Shown here piece after piece: positions 42,271-50,360 of a stretch of 64,000 nt of DNA. The DNA is from Gemmatimonadota bacterium (GTDB taxonomy: Bacteria; Gemmatimonadota; Gemmatimonadetes; Palauibacterales; Palauibacteraceae). Made by a program: the position numbers and the translations under genes. The notes below the pieces were generated by a model. The model worked only from the letters and a program-made list of their open reading frames with translations. It had not been told where the DNA came from and made no database searches. Within the stretch, counting starts at the first letter, position 1. Each line of letters opens with the position of its first letter. The stretch covers positions 1,140 to 65,139 of the forward strand of contig JAJEEM010000050.1 of the NCBI GenBank assembly GCA_022820995.1. The letters are read 5' to 3'.

Positions 42271-45054
42271 TCAGGTTTCCAGTTGCTGCCTCAGCACGGT
42301 CTGCAGAATGCCGCCGTTGCGGTAGTAGTCGACCTCGAATTCCGTATCCAGCCGCGCGATGGCCTCGAAGCGCGTCTCCGGTCCGTCGTCGGAGACCGCT
42401 GACACGGTGATCGCGTCCTTCGGCTTCAGCCCGTCCGCGATCCCGTCGATGCGGAAGGTCTCGTTGCCGGTGAGTCCCAGCGTCTCGGCCGTCTCCCCCT
42501 CCCGGAACTGAAGGGGCAGGATCCCCATCCCGATGAGGTTCGAACGGTGGATACGTTCGTAGCTCACGGCGATGACGGCCTGCACGCCCTGCAGGAAGGG
42601 GCCCTTGGCCGCCCAGTCGCGGCTCGACCCGGACCCGTAGAGCGCGCCGCCGATGACGATCGTCGGCGTCCCCTCCTCCCGGTAGCGCGTCGCCGCATCG
42701 AAGATCGTCATCTGCTCGCCGCTCGGGACGTGGCGCGTGAACCCGCCCTCCACCCCCGGCACCATCAGGTTCCGGAGCCGGATGTTCGCGAACGTCCCCC
42801 GCATCATCACTTCGTGGTTTCCGCGGCGGGCCCCGTACGAGTTGAAGTCGCGGAGCGCCACGCCGTGCGCCCTCAGGTAGTCCGCGGCCGGCGACGTCGG
42901 CGCGATCCCCCCGGCGGGCGAGATGTGGTCCGTGGTCACCGCGTCGCCGAGGAGGGCGAGACAGCGGGCTCCCTCGATGTCCGCGGGGGCGGCGGCCTCC
43001 TTCGACATCCCGTCGAAAAAGGTCGGCTGGCGCACGTAGGTCGAGGCCTCATCCCACGCGAAGCGGTCGCCCACCGGGATCTCCAGTGCGTTCCAGCGCT
43101 CGTCGCCGGCGTACACCTCCGCGTACTTGGCGCGGAACATCTCCGTCTTCACGGCGGTGCGGACGGTTTCGTTGATCTCGTCCTGGCTGGGCCAGATGTC
43201 GCGGAGGAAGATCTCCTCGCCCCGGTCGTTCGTCCCCAGCGGCTCGCTGTACAGGTCGATGTCCATCCGGCCCGCGAGGGCGTAGGCGACGACGAGGGGA
43301 GGCGAGGCGAGGTAGTTCGCGCGCGAATCGGGGCTGATGCGGCCCTCGAAGTTCCGGTTCCCGGAGAGGACCGAGCAGGCGACGAGGTCGTTCTCGCGGA
43401 TCGCGCCCGAGATCTCGGCCGGGAGCGGTCCGGTGTTCCCGATGCAGGTCGTGCAGCCGTAGCCCACCACATGAAAGCCCAGTTGCTCGAAGTAGGGCAT
43501 GAGGCCGGCTTCGTCGAGGTACTCCGTCACGACCATCGAGCCGGGAGCGAGACTCGTCTTCACCCATGGACGCTGCCTGAGGCCCGACTCGACGGCCTTC
43601 CGGGCCAGGAGGCCCGCACCGACCATGACGGACGGGTTCGACGTGTTCGTGCAACTCGTGATCGCGGCGATGACCACGGATCCGTCGCGAAGGGAGAACT
43701 CGTGCGACTCGCCCTGTTCGTCCGTCAGGCGCACGGCGACGCCGGCGGGGGCTTCGGCCACGGCCACGCCGCCGTCCCCCGCATCGGCGGACCAGCCGGT
43801 CATCTGCGTGAGGCCGCCGCCCCCCGTGCCCGGCCCCTTCAGCCCGTCGAGCGCCTCCAGGAAGCGCGGCTTGCTCTCCGACAGCGGCACGCGCTGCTGC
43901 GGCAGCTTCGGGCCCGCGATCGCCGGTTCGACCGTGGAGAGGTCGAGTTCCACGTGGTCGCTGTATTCCGCCGGCGGAGTGTCCGCATCGTGGAAGAGGC
44001 TCTGGGCCCGCGCGTAGGCCTCGACGAGCGCCACCTGCTCGTCGGAGCGGCCCGTGAAGCGAAGGTAGGCGAGCGTCTCCGCGTCGATGGGGAAGATCGC
44101 GCAGGTGGAGCCGAACTCGGGAGACATGTTGCCGAGCGTCGCCCGGTCGGCGAGCGACAGGCCGGCGAGGCCCGGTCCATGGAACTCGACGAACTTGCCG
44201 ACGACGCCGGCGCCGCGGAGAACCTCCGTCACCCGAAGGACGAGGTCCGTCGCCGTAGCGCCGTCCGGCAACCGCCCGCGGAGCCGGAAGCCGAGCACGC
44301 GCGGGACGAGCATGGAGAGCGCCTGCCCCAGCATCGCCGCTTCGGCCTCGATGCCGCCCACGCCCCACCCGAGGACGCCGAGACCGTTCACCATCGTGGT
44401 ATGGCTGTCCGTGCCGACGACGGTGTCGGGATAGGCGACGCGCCCGCTTCCCGTCGCGTCGTCGAACACGACCCGGGCCAGGTACTCGAGGTTCACCTGG
44501 TGCACGATCCCCGTCCCCGGCGGGACGACCTTGAAGTTGTCGAACGCCGTCTGGCCCCAGCGGAGGAACGCGTAGCGCTCGTGGTTCCGCTCGAATTCCC
44601 GCTCCGCGTTGATGAGGAACGAGCGCGCCGTGCCGAACGAGTCCACCTGCACGGAGTGGTCGATGACGAGTTCGCACGGCATCAGCGGGTTGATCGAGGC
44701 GGGGTCGCCGCCCAGTTCCGCCATCGCGTCGCGCATCGCGGCCAGATCCACGACGGCGGGCACGCCGGTGAAGTCCTGCAGGAGCACGCGCGCGGGCCGG
44801 AAGGAGAGTTCCCGCCCCGGCGTGGCCTGCGCGTCCCACCCCGCGATGGCGGCGATGTCCTCCGCCGTCACCGATTGTCCGTCCTCGTGCCGGACCAGGT
44901 TCTCCAGCACCACCTTGATCGAGAACGGAAGGCGCGACAGGTCGCTCCCGGTGGCGGAGGCGACGGCCCGCAGGTCGCGGATCGCGACGGGGCCGCCGGG
45001 AGCGTCGAGCGAAGCGCGGGCGCCGAAGGAATCGAGATGGGGAAGGCTGGACAT
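42271..45054 (-). CDS. acnA: Aconitate hydratase A
   Basis: [71 protein letters not shown]. Confidence 0.98.
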
Positions 45055-45146
45055 GGTGGACCTCATCGAGACTGCGAAGGGTTTGTTCCTCTGTGCAAAC
45101 GTATCGAACCCGAAGCCCCGGATCGACCGGGGAACGGGGCGTCAGG

Positions 45147-45175
45147 TTGAAGATGAATGTACTTGCGAATAAACT
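45147..45175 (+). promoter_or_regulatory. Sigma70-type promoter TTGAAG-N17-TAAACT for the binding protein/HAMP/MFS operon
   Basis: -35 at 45147-45152, -10 at 45170-45175, exact 17-nt AT-rich spacer. Confidence 0.65.
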
Positions 45176-45222
45176 CTGATGCCGGTCGGTCGCCCCGCGA
45201 CGGACCGGCCTTGGCCACGCGG

Positions 45223-46671
45223 ATGACCGCCGACGCAGGCAAGGAGAGGGTATTGTCCGGAAGTCGAAAAGGGACGCAGCCTTCGGACGGACCGCCGGTC
45301 CCGGACCGCGATCCGGCTCGGGCGGCGCCGCCGCCGGGCGGACTCCTGACGCGGCGCTCCGCAATCCGCGCCGGGCTGGCGGGTCTGCTCGGGGCGCCGT
45401 TCGCCACATCGCTCGGCGCCTCCACCCGACCGCTCGCGCCGGGGCTGCGCTGGAGCGGAAAGCAGGGCACGCAGCCGGACGACGAGATCCTCCTCGGCGT
45501 GTCCGCGGCCTTCTCCGGGCCCTCCCGGGGACTGGGCACCGAATTGTATCGCGGAGCGATGTCCTGTTTCGGGCAGGTCAACGAGCAGGGCGGCGTCAAC
45601 GGCCGGCGGATCGTCCTCAAGCTCTACGACGACGGCTACCAGCCCGACCCGTGCGTGGAGAACACGCTCAGGCTGATGCTGGAGGACGAGGTCTTCCTGC
45701 TGTTCGGCTACGTCGGCACGCCGACCGTCACCCGCGTCCTGCCGCTTCTGAAGAAGTTCCAGGACCAGCAGATGTACATCTTCTTCCCCTTCACGGGCGC
45801 CCAGCCGCAGCGTGAGCCGCCCTACGGGGAGTTCGCCTTCAACCTGCGCGCCTCCTACGGCCAGGAGACGGCGGGGCTCGTCGACAACTTCGTCCGCATC
45901 GGGCGCCGCCGAATCGCGGTCTTCTACCAGGCCGACGCGTACGGGCGCAGCGGCTGGGCCGGCGTGAGGGCGGCGCTCGCGCGGCACGGCGAGACGATCG
46001 CCGGCGAGGCGACCTACCGGCGGGGCACGCAGTTCACGAGCGTGATGCGGCCGCAGGTCGAGATCCTGCAGGAGGCCGAACCGGACGCCGTGATCTGCGT
46101 GGGCGCCTACGCGGCGTGCGCCGCCTTCGCCCGCGACGCGATGGACCTCGGCCTGCACGTGCCCATCGCCAACCTCTCCTTCGTGGGGAGCGAGAACCTG
46201 CTGGCCCTGCTCATGGACGCGAGCAGCGACGATCCGGCCTACTACACGCCGTGGCTCGTGAACTCGCAGGTCGTGCCCAGCTACGAGGACACGTCGATTC
46301 CGGCCGTGCCCGAGTACCGCGACCTGATGACGCGCTACGACCCGCAGGTGCCGGAGGAACTCGTCGTGGAACCCTACGACCCGTTCCCCTACAGCTTCAC
46401 GAGCCTCGAGGGATACCTGGACGCGAAACTGCTCACGGAAATCCTGGGCCGGATCGACGGCACCCCCGAGCGCAGCAAGCTGAACGACGCCGTGTTCTCC
46501 GTGCGCAACTACGATCTGGGGATCGGCGAACGGGTGTCGTTCGGGCCCGACCGGCGTCAGGGACTCCAGAGCGTCTACTACACCGTCGTGGAGGATGGCC
46601 GCTTCGTGACCCTCAGCGACTGGGATGCCAAGTTCGGCCTGGACGCGACCACGAGCGACGGGGCCCCGTGA
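45223..46671 (+). CDS. Periplasmic ligand-binding protein (type I, LivJ/Peripla_BP_6-like) with probable Tat signal
   Basis: TRRSAIRAGLAG twin-arginine motif; ILLGVSAAFSGP..VNEQGGVNGRRI..DDGYQP..GYVGTPT; start uncertain. Confidence 0.85.
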   Translation: MTADAGKERVLSGSRKGTQPSDGPPVPDRDPARAAPPPGGLLTRRSAIRAGLAGLLGAPFATSLGASTRPLAPGLRWSGKQGTQPDDEILLGVSAAFSGPSRGLGTELYRGAMSCFGQVNEQGGVNGRRIVLKLYDDGYQPDPCVENTLRLMLEDEVFLLFGYVGTPTVTRVLPLLKKFQDQQMYIFFPFTGAQPQREPPYGEFAFNLRASYGQETAGLVDNFVRIGRRRIAVFYQADAYGRSGWAGVRAALARHGETIAGEATYRRGTQFTSVMRPQVEILQEAEPDAVICVGAYAACAAFARDAMDLGLHVPIANLSFVGSENLLALLMDASSDDPAYYTPWLVNSQVVPSYEDTSIPAVPEYRDLMTRYDPQVPEELVVEPYDPFPYSFTSLEGYLDAKLLTEILGRIDGTPERSKLNDAVFSVRNYDLGIGERVSFGPDRRQGLQSVYYTVVEDGRFVTLSDWDAKFGLDATTSDGAP

Positions 46672-47408
46672 CGCCGCCGGAGCAGCAGGCGATCCGGATC
46701 AAGAGGCTCTTCCGGAAGACGCGCTTCGGCATCTTCGTCCTCTTCGGCGCCATCGTATTCGCCACGTCCACGCTCTCGATCCGAACGGTCTCCAGCCAGT
46801 TGCAGGAGGAGTACGAGAGCAACAGCGCGAACATCGCCAAGAACATCGCCGACTCCAGCGTCGACATCCTTCTCAACCGGAACCTCGCCACGCTGCAGTC
46901 GCTCATCGACCAGTTCATCGAGATCCAGAGCATCCGGTACATCTACATCACGAGCGACACGGGCGAGATCCTGACCCACACGTTCGTGCCCGGCGTCCCC
47001 GATGTGATCCGCGAGGGCGACCCGCACGCGACCGAGCCGATCGAACGCAGCCTGCCGGGGATGGGCGATTTCGTCGAGGTCGGGAGCCCGATCCTGGCCG
47101 GCCAGGCCGGTACGGTGCACGTGGGGATGGACCTCGACCTCGTGCGGCTCAAGATCCAGCGCGCCACGGGACAGCAGATCGCCCTGATCTGCATCATTCT
47201 CATCGTCGGCGTCCTGGGTTCGATCTGGTTCGTGAAGCTCGCCGTCACCCCGCTGGAGGAACTGCTCTCCTACGTGGTGGGACTGGCCCGCCGCGACCCG
47301 GGCGGGATGACGGATGCACGGGTGCTGGCGCGCGACGACGAGATCGGGGAGATGGCTCGCCTGATGCTTCACGCGGTGAAGGGTGAAACGACGCCGGGAG
47401 CGGACTGA
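46668..47408 (+). CDS. 2-TM membrane receptor with periplasmic domain and terminal HAMP, no output domain
   Basis: TM1 FGIFVLFGAIVFA, periplasmic domain of roughly 130 aa, TM2 IALICIILIVGVLGSIWF, HAMP TPLEEL..RDDEIGEMAR; GTGA overlap. Confidence 0.8.
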   Translation: MTPPEQQAIRIKRLFRKTRFGIFVLFGAIVFATSTLSIRTVSSQLQEEYESNSANIAKNIADSSVDILLNRNLATLQSLIDQFIEIQSIRYIYITSDTGEILTHTFVPGVPDVIREGDPHATEPIERSLPGMGDFVEVGSPILAGQAGTVHVGMDLDLVRLKIQRATGQQIALICIILIVGVLGSIWFVKLAVTPLEELLSYVVGLARRDPGGMTDARVLARDDEIGEMARLMLHAVKGETTPGAD

Positions 47409-47409
47409 G

Positions 47410-48702
47410 GTGTCCACCGAGGGGTGGAAGGCGCCCCGAGTCGCGATCGCCTTCTTCTGCACCGTCCTGCAGGTCTGCTTCGGCACCGTCTACGCGTGGA
47501 GCTTCTTCCAGACGATGCTGGTGCGGCAGGCGGGCTGGACGTTCACGCAGGGGTCGCTCGCCTTCTGCATCGCGATCTTCTCGCTCGGAACGGCGGCGGC
47601 CTGGGCCGGCCAGTTGCTGCCGCGGGTGGGTCCCCGGCGGCTCGCCCTCATCGGAAGCACGCTGTTCGCGGGCGGCTACATCATCGCGAGCTTCGCGCTG
47701 CGGATCGACTCGATCCTCCTCTTCTACGCCGGCTACGGGCTCATCGGGGGCATCGGCATCGGACTCGGGTACGTGACTCCGGTCACCACGGCCGCGAAGT
47801 GGTTCCCGGACCGGAAGGGGCTCGTCACGGGCATCGTCGTCATGGGCTTCGGCATCGGCGCGCTCATCCTCAGCAAGGGTCTCGCACCGCTGTTGGTGCT
47901 GCAGACGGAGGGGGATCTCCCGCAGATCTTCCTGTGGCTCGGGATCGTCTTCGCGTGCATCCTGATCCCCAGCAGTTTCGTCATCGACGATCCGCCGGCC
48001 GCCCAGGTCGCGCCGTGGAAGCAGCCGGCGAAGGTGGGGCAATACCTGAAGTCGAGCCAGTTCGTCATCATCTGGATCGTTTTCTTCTTCAACATCGCCG
48101 CGGGCATCTCGGTCATCAGCTTCCAGTCCGAACTCCTGCAGGAGGTGTGGGGGCTGGCCGATCCCTCGGTAGAACCCGCGGTGCTGGCGGAATACGGGGC
48201 GACGCTCATCGCGGCGAGTTCCGTGTGCAACGGAGTCGGGCGCATCCTGTGGGCCTGGCTCTCCGACCGCATCGGGCGCGTCGGCGTGTTCCGGATCCTG
48301 CTCGCGAGCCAGATGGTCGTGTTCGGCGTCCTCATGACCGAGTCCAATCCGTGGATCTTCTCCGCGCTCGTGTGCTACGTGCTGCTCTGCTTCGGCGGAG
48401 GATTCGCGACCATGCCCTCGTTCATCCTCGAGGTGTACGGCCCCGGGAACATGTCGAAGGTGTACGGCGCGATTCTCACCGCCTGGGCCGCGGCGGGGAT
48501 CACCGGCCCGCTGTACGTCGGATACCTCAAGGACTCCTATCCAGACCGGGCGGTGATGTACTGCTTCCTGATCGGGATCCTGATGCTCGGCGCGGGCTAC
48601 CTGTTCTCGTACCTGCTGGACGATGACCGCGTCAGCCTGGGCCGCCCGACGGTGAAGAAGACGCTGGAGCGCTACGGGATCCCCGTCGCCGACCGGACCT
48701 GA
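47410..48702 (+). CDS. MFS transporter, oxalate:formate antiporter (OFA) family
   Basis: GTVYAWS, GIGLGYVTPV..KWFPDRKGLVTG..VMGFG.G, NGVGRILWAWLSDRIGR, FGGGFATMP; about 12 TM. Confidence 0.9.
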   Translation: MSTEGWKAPRVAIAFFCTVLQVCFGTVYAWSFFQTMLVRQAGWTFTQGSLAFCIAIFSLGTAAAWAGQLLPRVGPRRLALIGSTLFAGGYIIASFALRIDSILLFYAGYGLIGGIGIGLGYVTPVTTAAKWFPDRKGLVTGIVVMGFGIGALILSKGLAPLLVLQTEGDLPQIFLWLGIVFACILIPSSFVIDDPPAAQVAPWKQPAKVGQYLKSSQFVIIWIVFFFNIAAGISVISFQSELLQEVWGLADPSVEPAVLAEYGATLIAASSVCNGVGRILWAWLSDRIGRVGVFRILLASQMVVFGVLMTESNPWIFSALVCYVLLCFGGGFATMPSFILEVYGPGNMSKVYGAILTAWAAAGITGPLYVGYLKDSYPDRAVMYCFLIGILMLGAGYLFSYLLDDDRVSLGRPTVKKTLERYGIPVADRT

Positions 48703-48706
48703 CGCG

Positions 48707-49141
48707 CTACCGCTCGTGTCGCGCCGGCGGCTGCGCGGGAGCGACGGCGAATACCTCCACCTGCACCGGGAGGCCCGGAACTCCGGCCAACCGCCGGTCC
48801 GTCGTCAGCAGCGGGGCAGCAAGGGTCTCCGCGAGCGTGACGTAGGCGGCGTCGTACGCGGTGAGGTTGTGGCGACGGGACCAGATCCTCGACAGGAGCG
48901 GCTCGTGTCCGTGCCGCCGCACATCGAGATCGAGGAGGTTGCGATACGCCTCGCCGGCACGGGTCGACGAGACCGCCCCGGTTTTCTCGTACCGGCGCAG
49001 AACGTGGAGCACTTCGAGGTCCAGGAGTTCAGGGCTGTGGAGGGAGATCCCGGGATCGGAGATTCGTTGCATGATTCGGGCGCCGGAGGGCGTACCCACT
49101 ACCAGTTCCACGACGGCGGATGCATCCAGGACGGCGACCAC
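48707..49141 (-). CDS. vapC: VapC PIN-domain toxin
   Basis: VLDASAVV, DLEVLHVLRR, NLTAYDAAYVTLAE, LLTTDRRL. Confidence 0.92.
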   Translation of the reverse strand: MVAVLDASAVVELVVGTPSGARIMQRISDPGISLHSPELLDLEVLHVLRRYEKTGAVSSTRAGEAYRNLLDLDVRRHGHEPLLSRIWSRRHNLTAYDAAYVTLAETLAAPLLTTDRRLAGVPGLPVQVEVFAVAPAQPPARHER

Positions 49142-49147
49142 GCGGCG

Positions 49148-49378
49148 TCAGCGCCTCGCCCGGGCTTCGCGGAGGACCTCGCTCGGCGGGGGATCCGGTT
49201 CGATCGGTGGGAGCCGGGCAATGCGGTTGAACAGCTCTTCCCGCGTGGGCTTCTCCAGGGACCGGCGGATCTCGCGCAGGACGTAGTCCGACATCGACGT
49301 GCCGGCGAGCGCCGCACGGGACTTGAGCCGCCGGTGCAGTTCGTCCGGCATGTTTCGTATCTGAAGCATCTTTGACAT
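49148..49378 (-). CDS. Ribbon-helix-helix antitoxin (FitA/VapB-like)
   Basis: MLQIRNMPDELHRRLKSRAALAGTSMSDYVL; directly upstream of vapC. Confidence 0.9.
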   Translation of the reverse strand: MSKMLQIRNMPDELHRRLKSRAALAGTSMSDYVLREIRRSLEKPTREELFNRIARLPPIEPDPPPSEVLREARARR

Positions 49379-49413
49379 GTGACGAACATGATTTCATGTT
49401 ATAAACATGTCAA
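49372..49413. promoter_or_regulatory. 42-bp palindromic operator/bidirectional promoter
   Basis: TTGACATGT-gacg-AACATGA-tt-TCATGTT-ataa-ACATGTCAA; TTGACA on both strands. Confidence 0.75.
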
Positions 49414-49448
49414 GTGCGAGTGCGACAACCCATAGATCGGCGACGTAC

Positions 49449-50360
49449 ATGAACTCTTTCTCGGCTCCTTTCAGCGGCGCCCTCGCCGCGCTCGCGATGG
49501 CGTTTTTTTTCGGCTCGTGCGCGTCGCCGCCGGCTCCCCGGCCGCCGCTGGAGGTCGCGTGGGCGCCGGGCGCCCCCGTCCAGGGTCACCTCTTCGTCAT
49601 CGGCGTCGCGGCGCCATCGGGCTCCGGCGTGATCTCGGCCGCCGGCGAGGTGGCTGGCGAGGCGCTGCACTTCCGGCGCGTCGGACCCCTGCTCGAGAGT
49701 CTGGCGGCGGTCCCGATTTCGACGGTGGACACGCTCGACGCGTGGGTGCGGGCGGACTATGCGGACGGCCGGTCCCGGACCGACTCGCTCCGCATTCCCG
49801 TGCGGGAGGGCGAATACGCACATGAGCGGCTCACGGTGGCCCCGCGCTTCGGGTCCCCGCCGAACGAGGAAGACCAGGCGCGGCTGGCAAGCGATCGGGC
49901 GAAGGCCGCCCGTGCCTCGCGCGAAGCGCACGCCATGCCGCGCATGTGGAGCACGGTGCGTCTCCCCCGCGAGTCCCGCGTGACGAGCGGCTTCGGCACG
50001 GGCTGCGAGTTCAACGGACAGATCACGAGCCGCCACATGGGACTCGACCTGGCCGGCGCCCGCGGCGCGATCGTGGCGGCGGCCGCCGATGGCGTCGTGG
50101 CGGTCGTCGACGGCTTTCTGCTCGGAGGGAACGTCGTCTACCTCAATCACGGCGGCGGCCTGCTCACCGGCTACTTCCACCTGAGCGAACAACTCGTCTC
50201 CGTCGGCGACACGGTCACGGCGGGGACGCCCATCGGACGGGTCGGGGCCACGGGTCGCGTTACCGGCCCCCACCTGCACTGGGTCGTGCGTTACGGGGGT
50301 ACGAGCGTGGACCCGCGCAGCCTGCTCGCGCTCCCGGGGATCAGAGCCATCCCGGAATGA
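49449..50360 (+). CDS. M23 family metallopeptidase, probable lipoprotein
   Basis: HMGLD (HxxxD), YFHLS, GATGRVTGPHLHW; FGSC lipobox-like; an alternative in-frame ATG lies at 49407. Confidence 0.9.
   Translation: MNSFSAPFSGALAALAMAFFFGSCASPPAPRPPLEVAWAPGAPVQGHLFVIGVAAPSGSGVISAAGEVAGEALHFRRVGPLLESLAAVPISTVDTLDAWVRADYADGRSRTDSLRIPVREGEYAHERLTVAPRFGSPPNEEDQARLASDRAKAARASREAHAMPRMWSTVRLPRESRVTSGFGTGCEFNGQITSRHMGLDLAGARGAIVAAAADGVVAVVDGFLLGGNVVYLNHGGGLLTGYFHLSEQLVSVGDTVTAGTPIGRVGATGRVTGPHLHWVVRYGGTSVDPRSLLALPGIRAIPE

Follow-up and report, generated by a model that had tools for sequence, protein, structure and literature searches.

Several membrane receptors are stimulated by periplasmic binding proteins, and passages of PMC8050422 list LuxP-LuxQ, TorT-TorS, HptA-HptS, XylFII-LytS and BasB-BasT among them. 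Here, we describe a locus of Gemmatimonadota bacterium (NCBI GenBank assembly GCA_022820995.1, contig JAJEEM010000050.1, positions 1,140 to 65,139 of the forward strand; this whole stretch of 64,000 nucleotides is called the window, and positions are counted from its first letter) in which genes for a binding protein and a receptor are followed by a gene for a transporter. Three co-directional, tightly packed open reading frames (ORFs) on the + strand encode a periplasmic binding protein (gene 1, PBP), a membrane receptor (gene 2, REC) with two transmembrane (TM) segments, and a carrier of the major facilitator superfamily (gene 3, MFS); the whole is referred to as the triad or cassette.

45157..46671, + strand: PBP, gene 1 (504 aa from ATG 45157; 482 aa from the likelier ATG 45223)
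46668..47408, + strand: REC, gene 2, a 246-aa output-less membrane receptor (TM1-sCache_3_2-TM2-HAMP)
47410..48702, + strand: MFS, gene 3, a 430-aa carrier of the OFA / bacterial SLC16-like (SfMCT) kind

As in receptors of the LuxP-LuxQ type, the binding-protein gene lies directly upstream of a receptor gene with a PAS/Cache-like extracytoplasmic domain. BasB belongs, like gene 1, to Peripla_BP_6, and in fold REC also matched, less strongly than other structures, the periplasmic domain of LuxQ (1zhh_B, E 8.3e-3; 3c38, E 9.4e-3). However, the PBP and sCache_3_2 families of the triad differ from the families of LuxP and LuxQ and, more importantly, receptors of the LuxQ type carry a kinase or methyl-accepting chemotaxis protein (MCP) output, whereas REC stops after its HAMP module and a transporter follows. 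HAMP modules are known for relaying signals to an enzymatic or chemotaxis output on the same chain, and carriers of the MFS are known to work on their own. In the TRAP (DctPQM) and TTT (TctABC) systems, too, the genes for a binding protein and a secondary carrier are accompanied by one for a further small membrane protein; however, DctP and TctC are not type I proteins of Peripla_BP_6, DctM and TctA are not MFS carriers, and DctQ and TctB have neither Cache nor HAMP. The TRAP and TTT families of Pfam gave no match on the three triad proteins.

The initial annotation of this locus had named Af1503 of Archaeoglobus fulgidus as a precedent. This is a real output-less HAMP receptor near a transporter: passages of PMC4834066 describe a receptor with only HAMP in the cytosol, encoded in an operon with STAC Af1502 and the MgtE-type transporter Af1505, and report that the neighbourhoods of Af1503-like receptors are enriched in transport genes. 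Af1503 shares with REC a HAMP as sole cytosolic part and a transporter in the operon, but it is archaeal, coupled through STAC and paired with an MgtE-type rather than an MFS transporter, and those passages (PMC4834066) name no binding protein, unlike the triad. No STAC-type ORF of 60-90 residues was found in the cassette, where a single base separates REC and MFS and no small conserved ORF is present. Furthermore, the REC family profile matched no chain among the PDB sequences at E<=1, and hence not the solved HAMP of Af1503, so that the precedent holds as an analogy only. In GlnH-GlnX-PknG, according to passages of PMC8050422, a binding protein likewise signals through a non-catalytic membrane protein. 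GlnX relays to the soluble Ser/Thr kinase PknG, whereas no such partner is linked to the triad. The architecture of GlnX also differs from that of REC. On the side of the carrier, SfMCT and OxlT lie in the same subfamily region of the MFS as gene 3, which adds a conserved C-terminal tail; in the passages concerned of PMC6573034, SfMCT was studied without accessory proteins, unlike the triad MFS. Full-text literature searches, with supplementary files outside their scope, found no paper on the PBP-REC-MFS triad.

Conservation of the triad and its output-bearing relatives

We addressed the conservation of the triad in a scan of one genome per species, which gave 316 loci with triad relatives; 80 of them, a few cut by contig ends, were kept for analysis. 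PBP, REC and MFS were in order and adjacent in all 80 loci (tblastn), which come from at least two phylum-level genome sets. The three genes are thus syntenic elsewhere, contrary to the possibility, raised at the outset, that they might not be in other genomes. In the window, the reading of ORFs and junctions bore out the three genes with the overlap and the single-base gap first proposed: the GTG start of REC (46668-46670) overlaps the TGA stop of PBP (46669-46671) in a GTGA at 46668-46671, and the TGA stop of REC (47406-47408) is followed by one base and then by the GTG start of MFS at 47410, nine bases upstream of which stands GGGAG; the stop codon of MFS is 48700-48702. Among the kept loci, the PBP stop and the REC start overlapped by 4 nt in 51/80 and were 1-2 nt apart in 26/80, and in 72 of 79 loci no more than 30 nt separated the REC stop from the closest start codon of MFS, although choosing the closest codon makes this an optimistic measure. 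These results indicated that the arrangement is far beyond chance.

More importantly, REC has longer homologues that are 28-42% identical to it over TM-sCache_3_2-TM-HAMP and then continue into output domains, namely SpoIIE/PP2C (with or without HATPase_c_2), PAS-HisKA-HATPase, sigma54 AAA+, MCP or cyclase. Metagenome contigs were scanned from an alignment of 28 of these homologues, and 80 loci (L108-L187) were kept. A PBP homologue was located directly upstream of the output-bearing sensor gene in 74 of these 80 loci, and the six exceptions comprised four without upstream DNA and two with other genes there. The sensors thus share with the triad the upstream PBP family (62 full-length sensor-linked PBPs were 46-62% identical to gene 1, with a median of 57%) and a similar coupling of the PBP and sensor genes, but they differ in their fused outputs and in the absence of MFS homologues (0/80). 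The 31 sensor ORFs sampled comprised 10 SpoIIE/PP2C proteins, most of which carried an RsbW-like ATPase domain, 19 histidine kinases, one sigma54 activator and one ORF cut by the contig end after HAMP-PAS. In a FastTree phylogeny, 70 triad RECs formed a long branch apart from 65 output-bearing sensors, none of which (0/65) fell inside the triad clade. As MFS was present in 80/80 triad loci and in 0/80 sensor loci, it occurs only where the output domain is missing. Judged from these sequence comparisons, PBP plus sCache_3_2-HAMP is a general, undescribed two-gene sensor of predicted function, and in the triad MFS stands at the position of the output.

Since PBP is paired with Cache sensors of many different outputs, the docking of liganded PBP on REC is a well-supported step. 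This part of the initial annotation gained strong indirect support from the 74 of 80 loci in which homologous PBPs precede homologous sensors, and we consider it highly probable that PBP docks on REC. The pairing also has a wider bearing, in that this widespread sensor would feed PP2C phosphatases, kinases and a sigma54 activator, and the identification of one ligand would annotate hundreds of PBP plus sCache_3_2-HAMP systems.

Several individual loci deserve mention. L153 and L155 were the only sensor loci with upstream DNA yet no PBP; a 416-aa ORF without PBP similarity lies directly upstream of the sensor gene in L153 (209-1456), unrelated ORFs lie upstream of the sensor in L155 (3-1142), and replacement or insertion is possibly the cause. 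L186 (980-4393) encodes a membrane-anchored sCache_3_2-HAMP-PAS followed by a sigma54-interaction AAA+ domain and a helix-turn-helix, with PBP upstream, and resembles a one-component membrane-bound enhancer-binding protein. The genome of the window itself holds a second PBP-linked signalling operon (G000:C31, L188, 4219-9126), in the order response-regulator-SpoIIE phosphatase, Peripla_BP_6 paralogue (42% identical) and membrane HAMP-HisKA-HATPase kinase; the sensor region of this kinase had no Pfam match. A phylum-wide search with the SpoIIE-type relative P0141 gave mostly PP2C-domain matches, and four regions taken from it (L102, L103, L106 and L107) were without REC or PBP. A second output-less Cache-HAMP family, represented by P0250 (238 aa, sharing 45% identity with REC) and its cluster of 741 members, among them one of a Pseudolabrys metagenome-assembled genome (MAG), is mostly labelled 'sensor histidine kinase regulating citrate/malate metabolism' despite the absent kinase. 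In an embedding search, we also found many clusters of 218-250-aa proteins that consist of a sensor plus HAMP only and have other sensor domains, so the output-less sensor-HAMP phenomenon may be wider than this triad.

The three gene products

REC consists of a TM segment, an sCache_3_2 domain, a second TM segment and a HAMP-like helix-connector-helix, and the chain ends about 10 residues past the second helix.

46719..46787, + strand: REC TM1 (residues ~18-40; model helix 4-70; F20, G21, F23 and L36 invariant in triad RECs)
46794..47159, + strand: REC single Cache domain (residues 43-164; the model has a beta-sheet over 89-155)
47163..47240, + strand: REC TM2 (residues ~166-191; triad-specific conservation of G168, Q169, I176, L183 and W187)
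47241..47375, + strand: REC HAMP-like module (AS1 192-208, connector, AS2 222-236)

The periplasmic part, whose family the initial annotation had left unnamed, is a single Cache domain of the CitA/DcuS type: sCache_3_2 (PF17203) matched residues 43-164 with E 5.9e-9 and 36.6 bits against a gathering cut-off of 28.4. Its fold was nearest to the CitA sensor (1p0z/2j80, E ~2e-4, 22% identity), and the fold of the whole chain was nearest to a WalK model (E 4e-7, TMq 0.64). No kinase domain was detected in REC by Pfam, and the DcuS/CitA kinase model NF008298 gave 17.5 bits against a cut-off of 520. The initial annotation had allowed that REC could be a truncated copy whose close homologues continue into a kinase or MCP domain. 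We found 823 homologues of near-equal length, the best 120 of which were all 238-285 aa long (62-91% identity), with none continuing into a kinase or MCP domain; in alignment A1 (26 sequences) conservation reaches to the end of the second HAMP helix, beyond which the few C-terminal residues are variable. A truncated sensor was rejected, as close homologues have the same length and the output-bearing relatives lie outside the triad clade. The genome of the window has one REC-like gene and no longer paralogue of it, so that no full-length paralogue is available for heterodimers.

The HAMP-like module is spanned by model helices 156-207 and 225-241, and residues 192-233 align to residues 184-222 of the homologous kinase P0125, inside its Pfam HAMP (181-230, E 1.6e-11). 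P195, L196, L199, E225, G227 and A230 are conserved in triad RECs and output-bearing sensors alike, and three of them, the hallmark HAMP residues P195, E225 and G227, do not vary in triad RECs. The mean pairwise column identity, taken over 52 diverse RECs of the triad, was 0.81 in the Cache domain, 0.63 in AS1 and 0.69 in AS2, and that of TM2 was 0.75 in triad RECs compared with 0.45 in output-bearing sensors. F20, G21, F23, L36, G168, Q169, I176, L183, W187, L200 and R231 are invariant in triad RECs only, and 82 REC columns were invariant across 71 sequences. The alignments thus indicate continued selection on the HAMP of the stub, and the conserved HAMP together with the triad-only invariant residues in TM and HAMP suggests that REC still transmits a signal across the membrane and offers a contact surface peculiar to the triad.

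Gene 3 matched MFS_1 with E 4.4e-28. It had been assigned to the OFA family; the relation to that part of the MFS stood, but the OFA models fell below their cut-offs (TIGR00890, 180 bits against 374.85; the oxalate:formate antiporter TIGR04259, 144.4 against 335), and the best NCBIfam match was instead the SfMCT L-lactate model NF049980, with 310.2 bits just under its cut-off of 320. Among PDB chains, SfMCT (6g9x) matched with E 1.9e-29 (~30% identity) and OxlT (8hpj) with E 3.5e-21. Read from the alignment, the SfMCT carboxylate-site residues Y119, N276 and R280 and the K377/D378 pair are conserved in MFS, and passages of PMC6573034 give Y119, N276 and R280, the carboxylate-binding residues of SfMCT, as essential. 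Other SfMCT sites differ (L145 to F, D257 to E); of the proton-site residues H250, D257, D378 and Y383, D378 is kept, and Y383 has no clear alignment. On account of the conserved carboxylate site, the substrate of MFS is likely to be monocarboxylate-like. The triad carriers showed a mean column identity of 81%, including the C-terminal tail (alignment A4, 71 proteins).

48616..48699, + strand: conserved cytoplasmic C-terminal tail of MFS (consensus ...RLGRPT...TL.RYGIP)

In this tail, R407, P413, T418 and L419 are invariant, and L410, G411, R412, T414, Y422 and G423 are conserved in at least 90% of the sequences (A4, n=71); the SfMCT alignment ends near MFS residue 399 and leaves the tail uncovered. 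We infer that the tail could be the contact of HAMP. Two MFS carriers 61-62% identical to gene 3 (P0409 and P0410, ~1055 aa, from two sources, ENA and JGI) have an amidase-signature enzyme joined at their C-terminus, which may be a hint at the substrate range or a fusion made by gene calling.

Gene 1 belongs to Peripla_BP_6 (PF13458; E 7.4e-40, 138.1 bits against a gathering cut-off of 31.7), and its AlphaFold (AF2) model (pLDDT 91.3, pTM 0.91) has the two-lobe fold of type I binding proteins. The nearest solved structure is 4kv7 (Foldseek TM 0.83/0.90, 31% identity; phmmer E 6.4e-47), an uncharacterised protein for which a literature search found no paper. The assignment as a type I binding protein without an adjacent ABC permease or ATPase was confirmed: no ABC component, of the LIV type or other, was found among six downstream neighbours (PIN, RHH, M23, steroid reductase, OCD and TauE) or in the 14 ORF clusters most frequent beside the triad in 61 diverse loci, although an unlinked ABC partner may exist elsewhere in the genome. 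An NCBIfam model of the LivJ/K type gave 27.9 bits against a cut-off of 477.

45343..45423, + strand: twin-arginine-type signal peptide of PBP, LLTRRSAIRAGLAGLLGAPFATSLGAS (residues 63-89 of the 504-aa ORF)

This putative twin-arginine translocation (Tat)-like RR signal was read from the translation, and PBP homologues of other lineages align from about residue 63 onward. The sequence and fold neighbours of PBP bind diverse carboxylates, amino acids, urea and amides, and those found with Foldseek bind amino acids, hydroxybenzoates, keto acids and fatty acids; the ligand is likely to be a carboxylate or an amino-acid-like compound.

Proposed gating of the carrier and competing explanations

We tentatively favour the reading that the triad forms a binding-protein-dependent, receptor-gated MFS carrier. 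A Tat-exported PBP would capture a small periplasmic ligand and, in the manner of LuxP with LuxQ, dock on dimeric REC at its single Cache domain, and REC would relay the change via TM2 and the HAMP bundle. Since REC has no enzymatic output, the signal would be read by the MFS encoded one base downstream, via transmembrane helices, via a contact of HAMP with the conserved C-terminal tail in the cytoplasm, or by both routes. The carrier could then be switched on or off post-translationally in its uptake or release of a monocarboxylate, ligand and direction of transport being conjectural. MFS is the only invariant candidate receiver, and no flanking ORF family that could supply a fourth component occurred in more than 19 of the 61 loci. 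The direct signalling from HAMP to MFS that the initial annotation had put forward is kept here as a proposal, for which the MFS-or-output alternation (80/80 versus 0/80), the conserved HAMP residues and a co-fold rated as weak support speak. In this co-fold of two REC copies with MFS, ipSAE was 0.43 compared with 0.00 in the best of three controls, at least 80% of contacts recurred between runs, and the pLDDT of the partner was 77 or higher. Of the pairs used for calibration, 58/80 solved complexes and 2/110 mismatched pairs passed the mark; the present prediction differs from that calibration in its own alignments and its two REC copies. The co-fold raises the odds of gating a little, and no more. 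Contact between REC and MFS, with gating of the carrier, is a tentative proposal that might hold but should not be relied on, and we are somewhat more doubtful of its strictest form, in which HAMP has a secondary transporter as its direct output and liganded PBP, via the Cache-HAMP stub, allosterically opens or closes MFS.

A number of results weigh against receptor gating. Pfam HAMP (PF00672) gave no match on REC even at E<=10; of the TM-periplasmic-TM-HAMP receptor first described, the architecture and the early stop stood, whereas the HAMP assignment draws on the alignment to a homologue and on fold. The SfMCT proton-site residue H250 aligns to an invariant Phe in the triad MFS, and the amidase-joined relatives show that this type of carrier does not always need REC. 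We found no credible REC-MFS fusion among the longer REC homologues and no sensor fusion among 11 longer MFS relatives, a set that leaves the near-length range of ~680 aa uncovered. The fusion homologues for which a search had been suggested thus did not emerge, since the apparent fusions P0121, P0140 and P0236 and the PBP-REC forms P0122 and P0124 were single-member clusters and four of these five had Arg-rich linkers that looked frameshifted or out of frame. As for the co-fold, scores of 0.60 or less comprised 7 of the 80 solved complexes and both passing mismatches, so that, for a pairing without good prior likelihood, a pass in this band would be wrong in more cases than not; a contact of REC with MFS is proposed from the gene pattern and from this model. 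All three genes are represented in metatranscriptome contigs from three studies (four runs; 90-97% alike), with the PBP/REC junction bridged in X16 record 3, X18 record 21 and X19 record 27 and the REC/MFS junction in X17 record 11, and these are compatible with expression of the triad as one unit; being assembled contigs of close relatives, however, they fall short of proof of a single transcript, and DNA carry-over is possible. Finally, the sequence and fold neighbours of PBP bind many compound classes, and no single ligand is named for it.

The explanation that survives best beside receptor gating is uptake of the TRAP or TTT kind, in which PBP would deliver its ligand to an outward-open MFS and REC would be a passive dock or assembly subunit without signalling. 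The lack of an ABC permease or ATPase near PBP would fit such delivery, as would carboxylate binding by its fold neighbours together with the carboxylate site kept in MFS, and high-affinity uptake would suit sponge-associated bacteria; however, the same PBP family (46-62% identical) serves signalling proteins in 74 of 80 loci that are free of MFS, which makes the sensor the established partner of PBP. Moreover, if REC were only a passive dock, there would be no need for its cytoplasmic HAMP to be conserved. To our knowledge, no MFS carrier depends on a binding protein, and our literature search found none in print. We therefore regard TRAP-like delivery as unlikely.

The strict alternation of MFS and output domain would be left unexplained if REC signalled in trans to an unlinked cytosolic kinase, PP2C or cyclase, with MFS merely co-expressed and carrying the sensed compound. 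Passages on GlnH-GlnX-PknG (PMC8050422) and on Af1503-Af1502 (PMC4834066) provide precedents of an output-less relay, and the second PBP-linked signalling operon (L188) shows that the same genome has other such systems. No signalling gene is conserved beside the triad, however, where the top flanking family reached 19 of 61 loci, and a bare three-gene cassette recurs, patchily (52/401 and 3/151 genomes), in at least two phylum-level sets. Signalling in trans thus appears quite improbable.

Sensors of the DcuS type use the transporters DctA and DcuB as co-sensors. A reversed flow of information, in which REC reads the transport state of MFS and alters the hold of Cache on PBP in a LapD-like manner, or in which MFS is a co-sensor, could draw on the likeness of the REC periplasmic fold to the periplasmic output domain of a LapD orthologue (4u64, E 7.6e-4) and on a weak Pfam match of LapD_MoxY_N (E 0.25), but these structural matches are generic for Cache/PAS-like folds, and with no further conserved partner the release of PBP would have no apparent consequence; such a role seems very improbable. 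A REC without a function of its own, be it the decaying rest of a sensor kinase or a decoy of one, would account for the missing output domain but is close to refuted by 823 homologues of the same length, the 82 invariant columns, the separate long branch of the 70 triad RECs and the conserved coupling to both neighbours.

Under receptor gating, the triad would be a binding-protein-dependent receptor with a transporter as its output, and there is a substantial chance that this mechanism, if confirmed, is new in kind. Bacteria would then possess a ligand-gated carrier assembled from components of signal transduction, and many short proteins of sensor plus HAMP only would become candidates for a general class of transporter regulators. 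A conserved, mobile unit with a carrier in place of the output would add an output class to transmembrane signalling, and a receptor-gated carrier would add post-translational control of nutrient flux.

Promoter, neighbouring genes and distribution

45147..45175, + strand: weak sigma70-like motif (TTGAAG-17 nt-TAAACT, 8/12 consensus matches)

The sigma70-like promoter proposed for the triad is a weak call, and a promoter scan of 44900-49500 returned 0 promoter-like sites. If the motif is used as a promoter, ATG 45157 is excluded as a start and ATG 45223 becomes the likely one. Upstream of the triad lie acnA and ccm-like ORFs. The divergent acnA had been taken as fitting an organic-acid ligand, though perhaps by coincidence; it is a coincidental neighbour, because no flanking gene family exceeded 19 of the 61 diverse loci. 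The commonest flanking families scanned were BNR/sortilin, OGDH E1, ECH (enoyl-CoA hydratase) and TetR or had no Pfam family, and the flanking clusters were lineage-specific or spurious high-GC ORFs. Downstream, on the - strand, a VapC-like PIN gene (48707-49141) and a FitA-like ribbon-helix-helix (RHH) antitoxin gene (49148-49378) form a toxin-antitoxin pair that is convergent to the MFS gene and ends 5 bases from its stop.

Triad matches were found patchily, in 52 of 401 genomes of the window's phylum and in 3 of 151 genomes of a second phylum. The taxon labels of the loci, which may be wrong, were Gemmatimonadota (Palauibacter, Longimicrobiales), Binatia, Acidobacteriota, Latescibacterota, Thermodesulfobacteriota, Aminicenantes and Gammaproteobacteria; one MAG labelled Gammaproteobacteria (L051/G201) sits in the window's own phylum-level genome set, since the set around it repeats places already found in the window's phylum, and its label is apparently wrong. 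Between the genome of the window and five other triad genomes, AcnA was 59-65% identical compared with 67-80% for the triad proteins, which is no more than suggestive of horizontal spread, a single housekeeping protein being the yardstick. The best DNA holders of the exact stretch, with near-identical copies, were sponge metagenomes, and the triad is kept intact in many uncultured marine bacteria; these copies mean that the triad may bear on metabolite exchange in sponge holobionts. One Palauibacter contig (NZ_CBDBZT010000003.1) carries three triad copies (L005, L007 and L008), and two of them, L005 and L007, which lie ~90 kb apart, have identical match coordinates and identities and are likely to stem from a recent segmental duplication.

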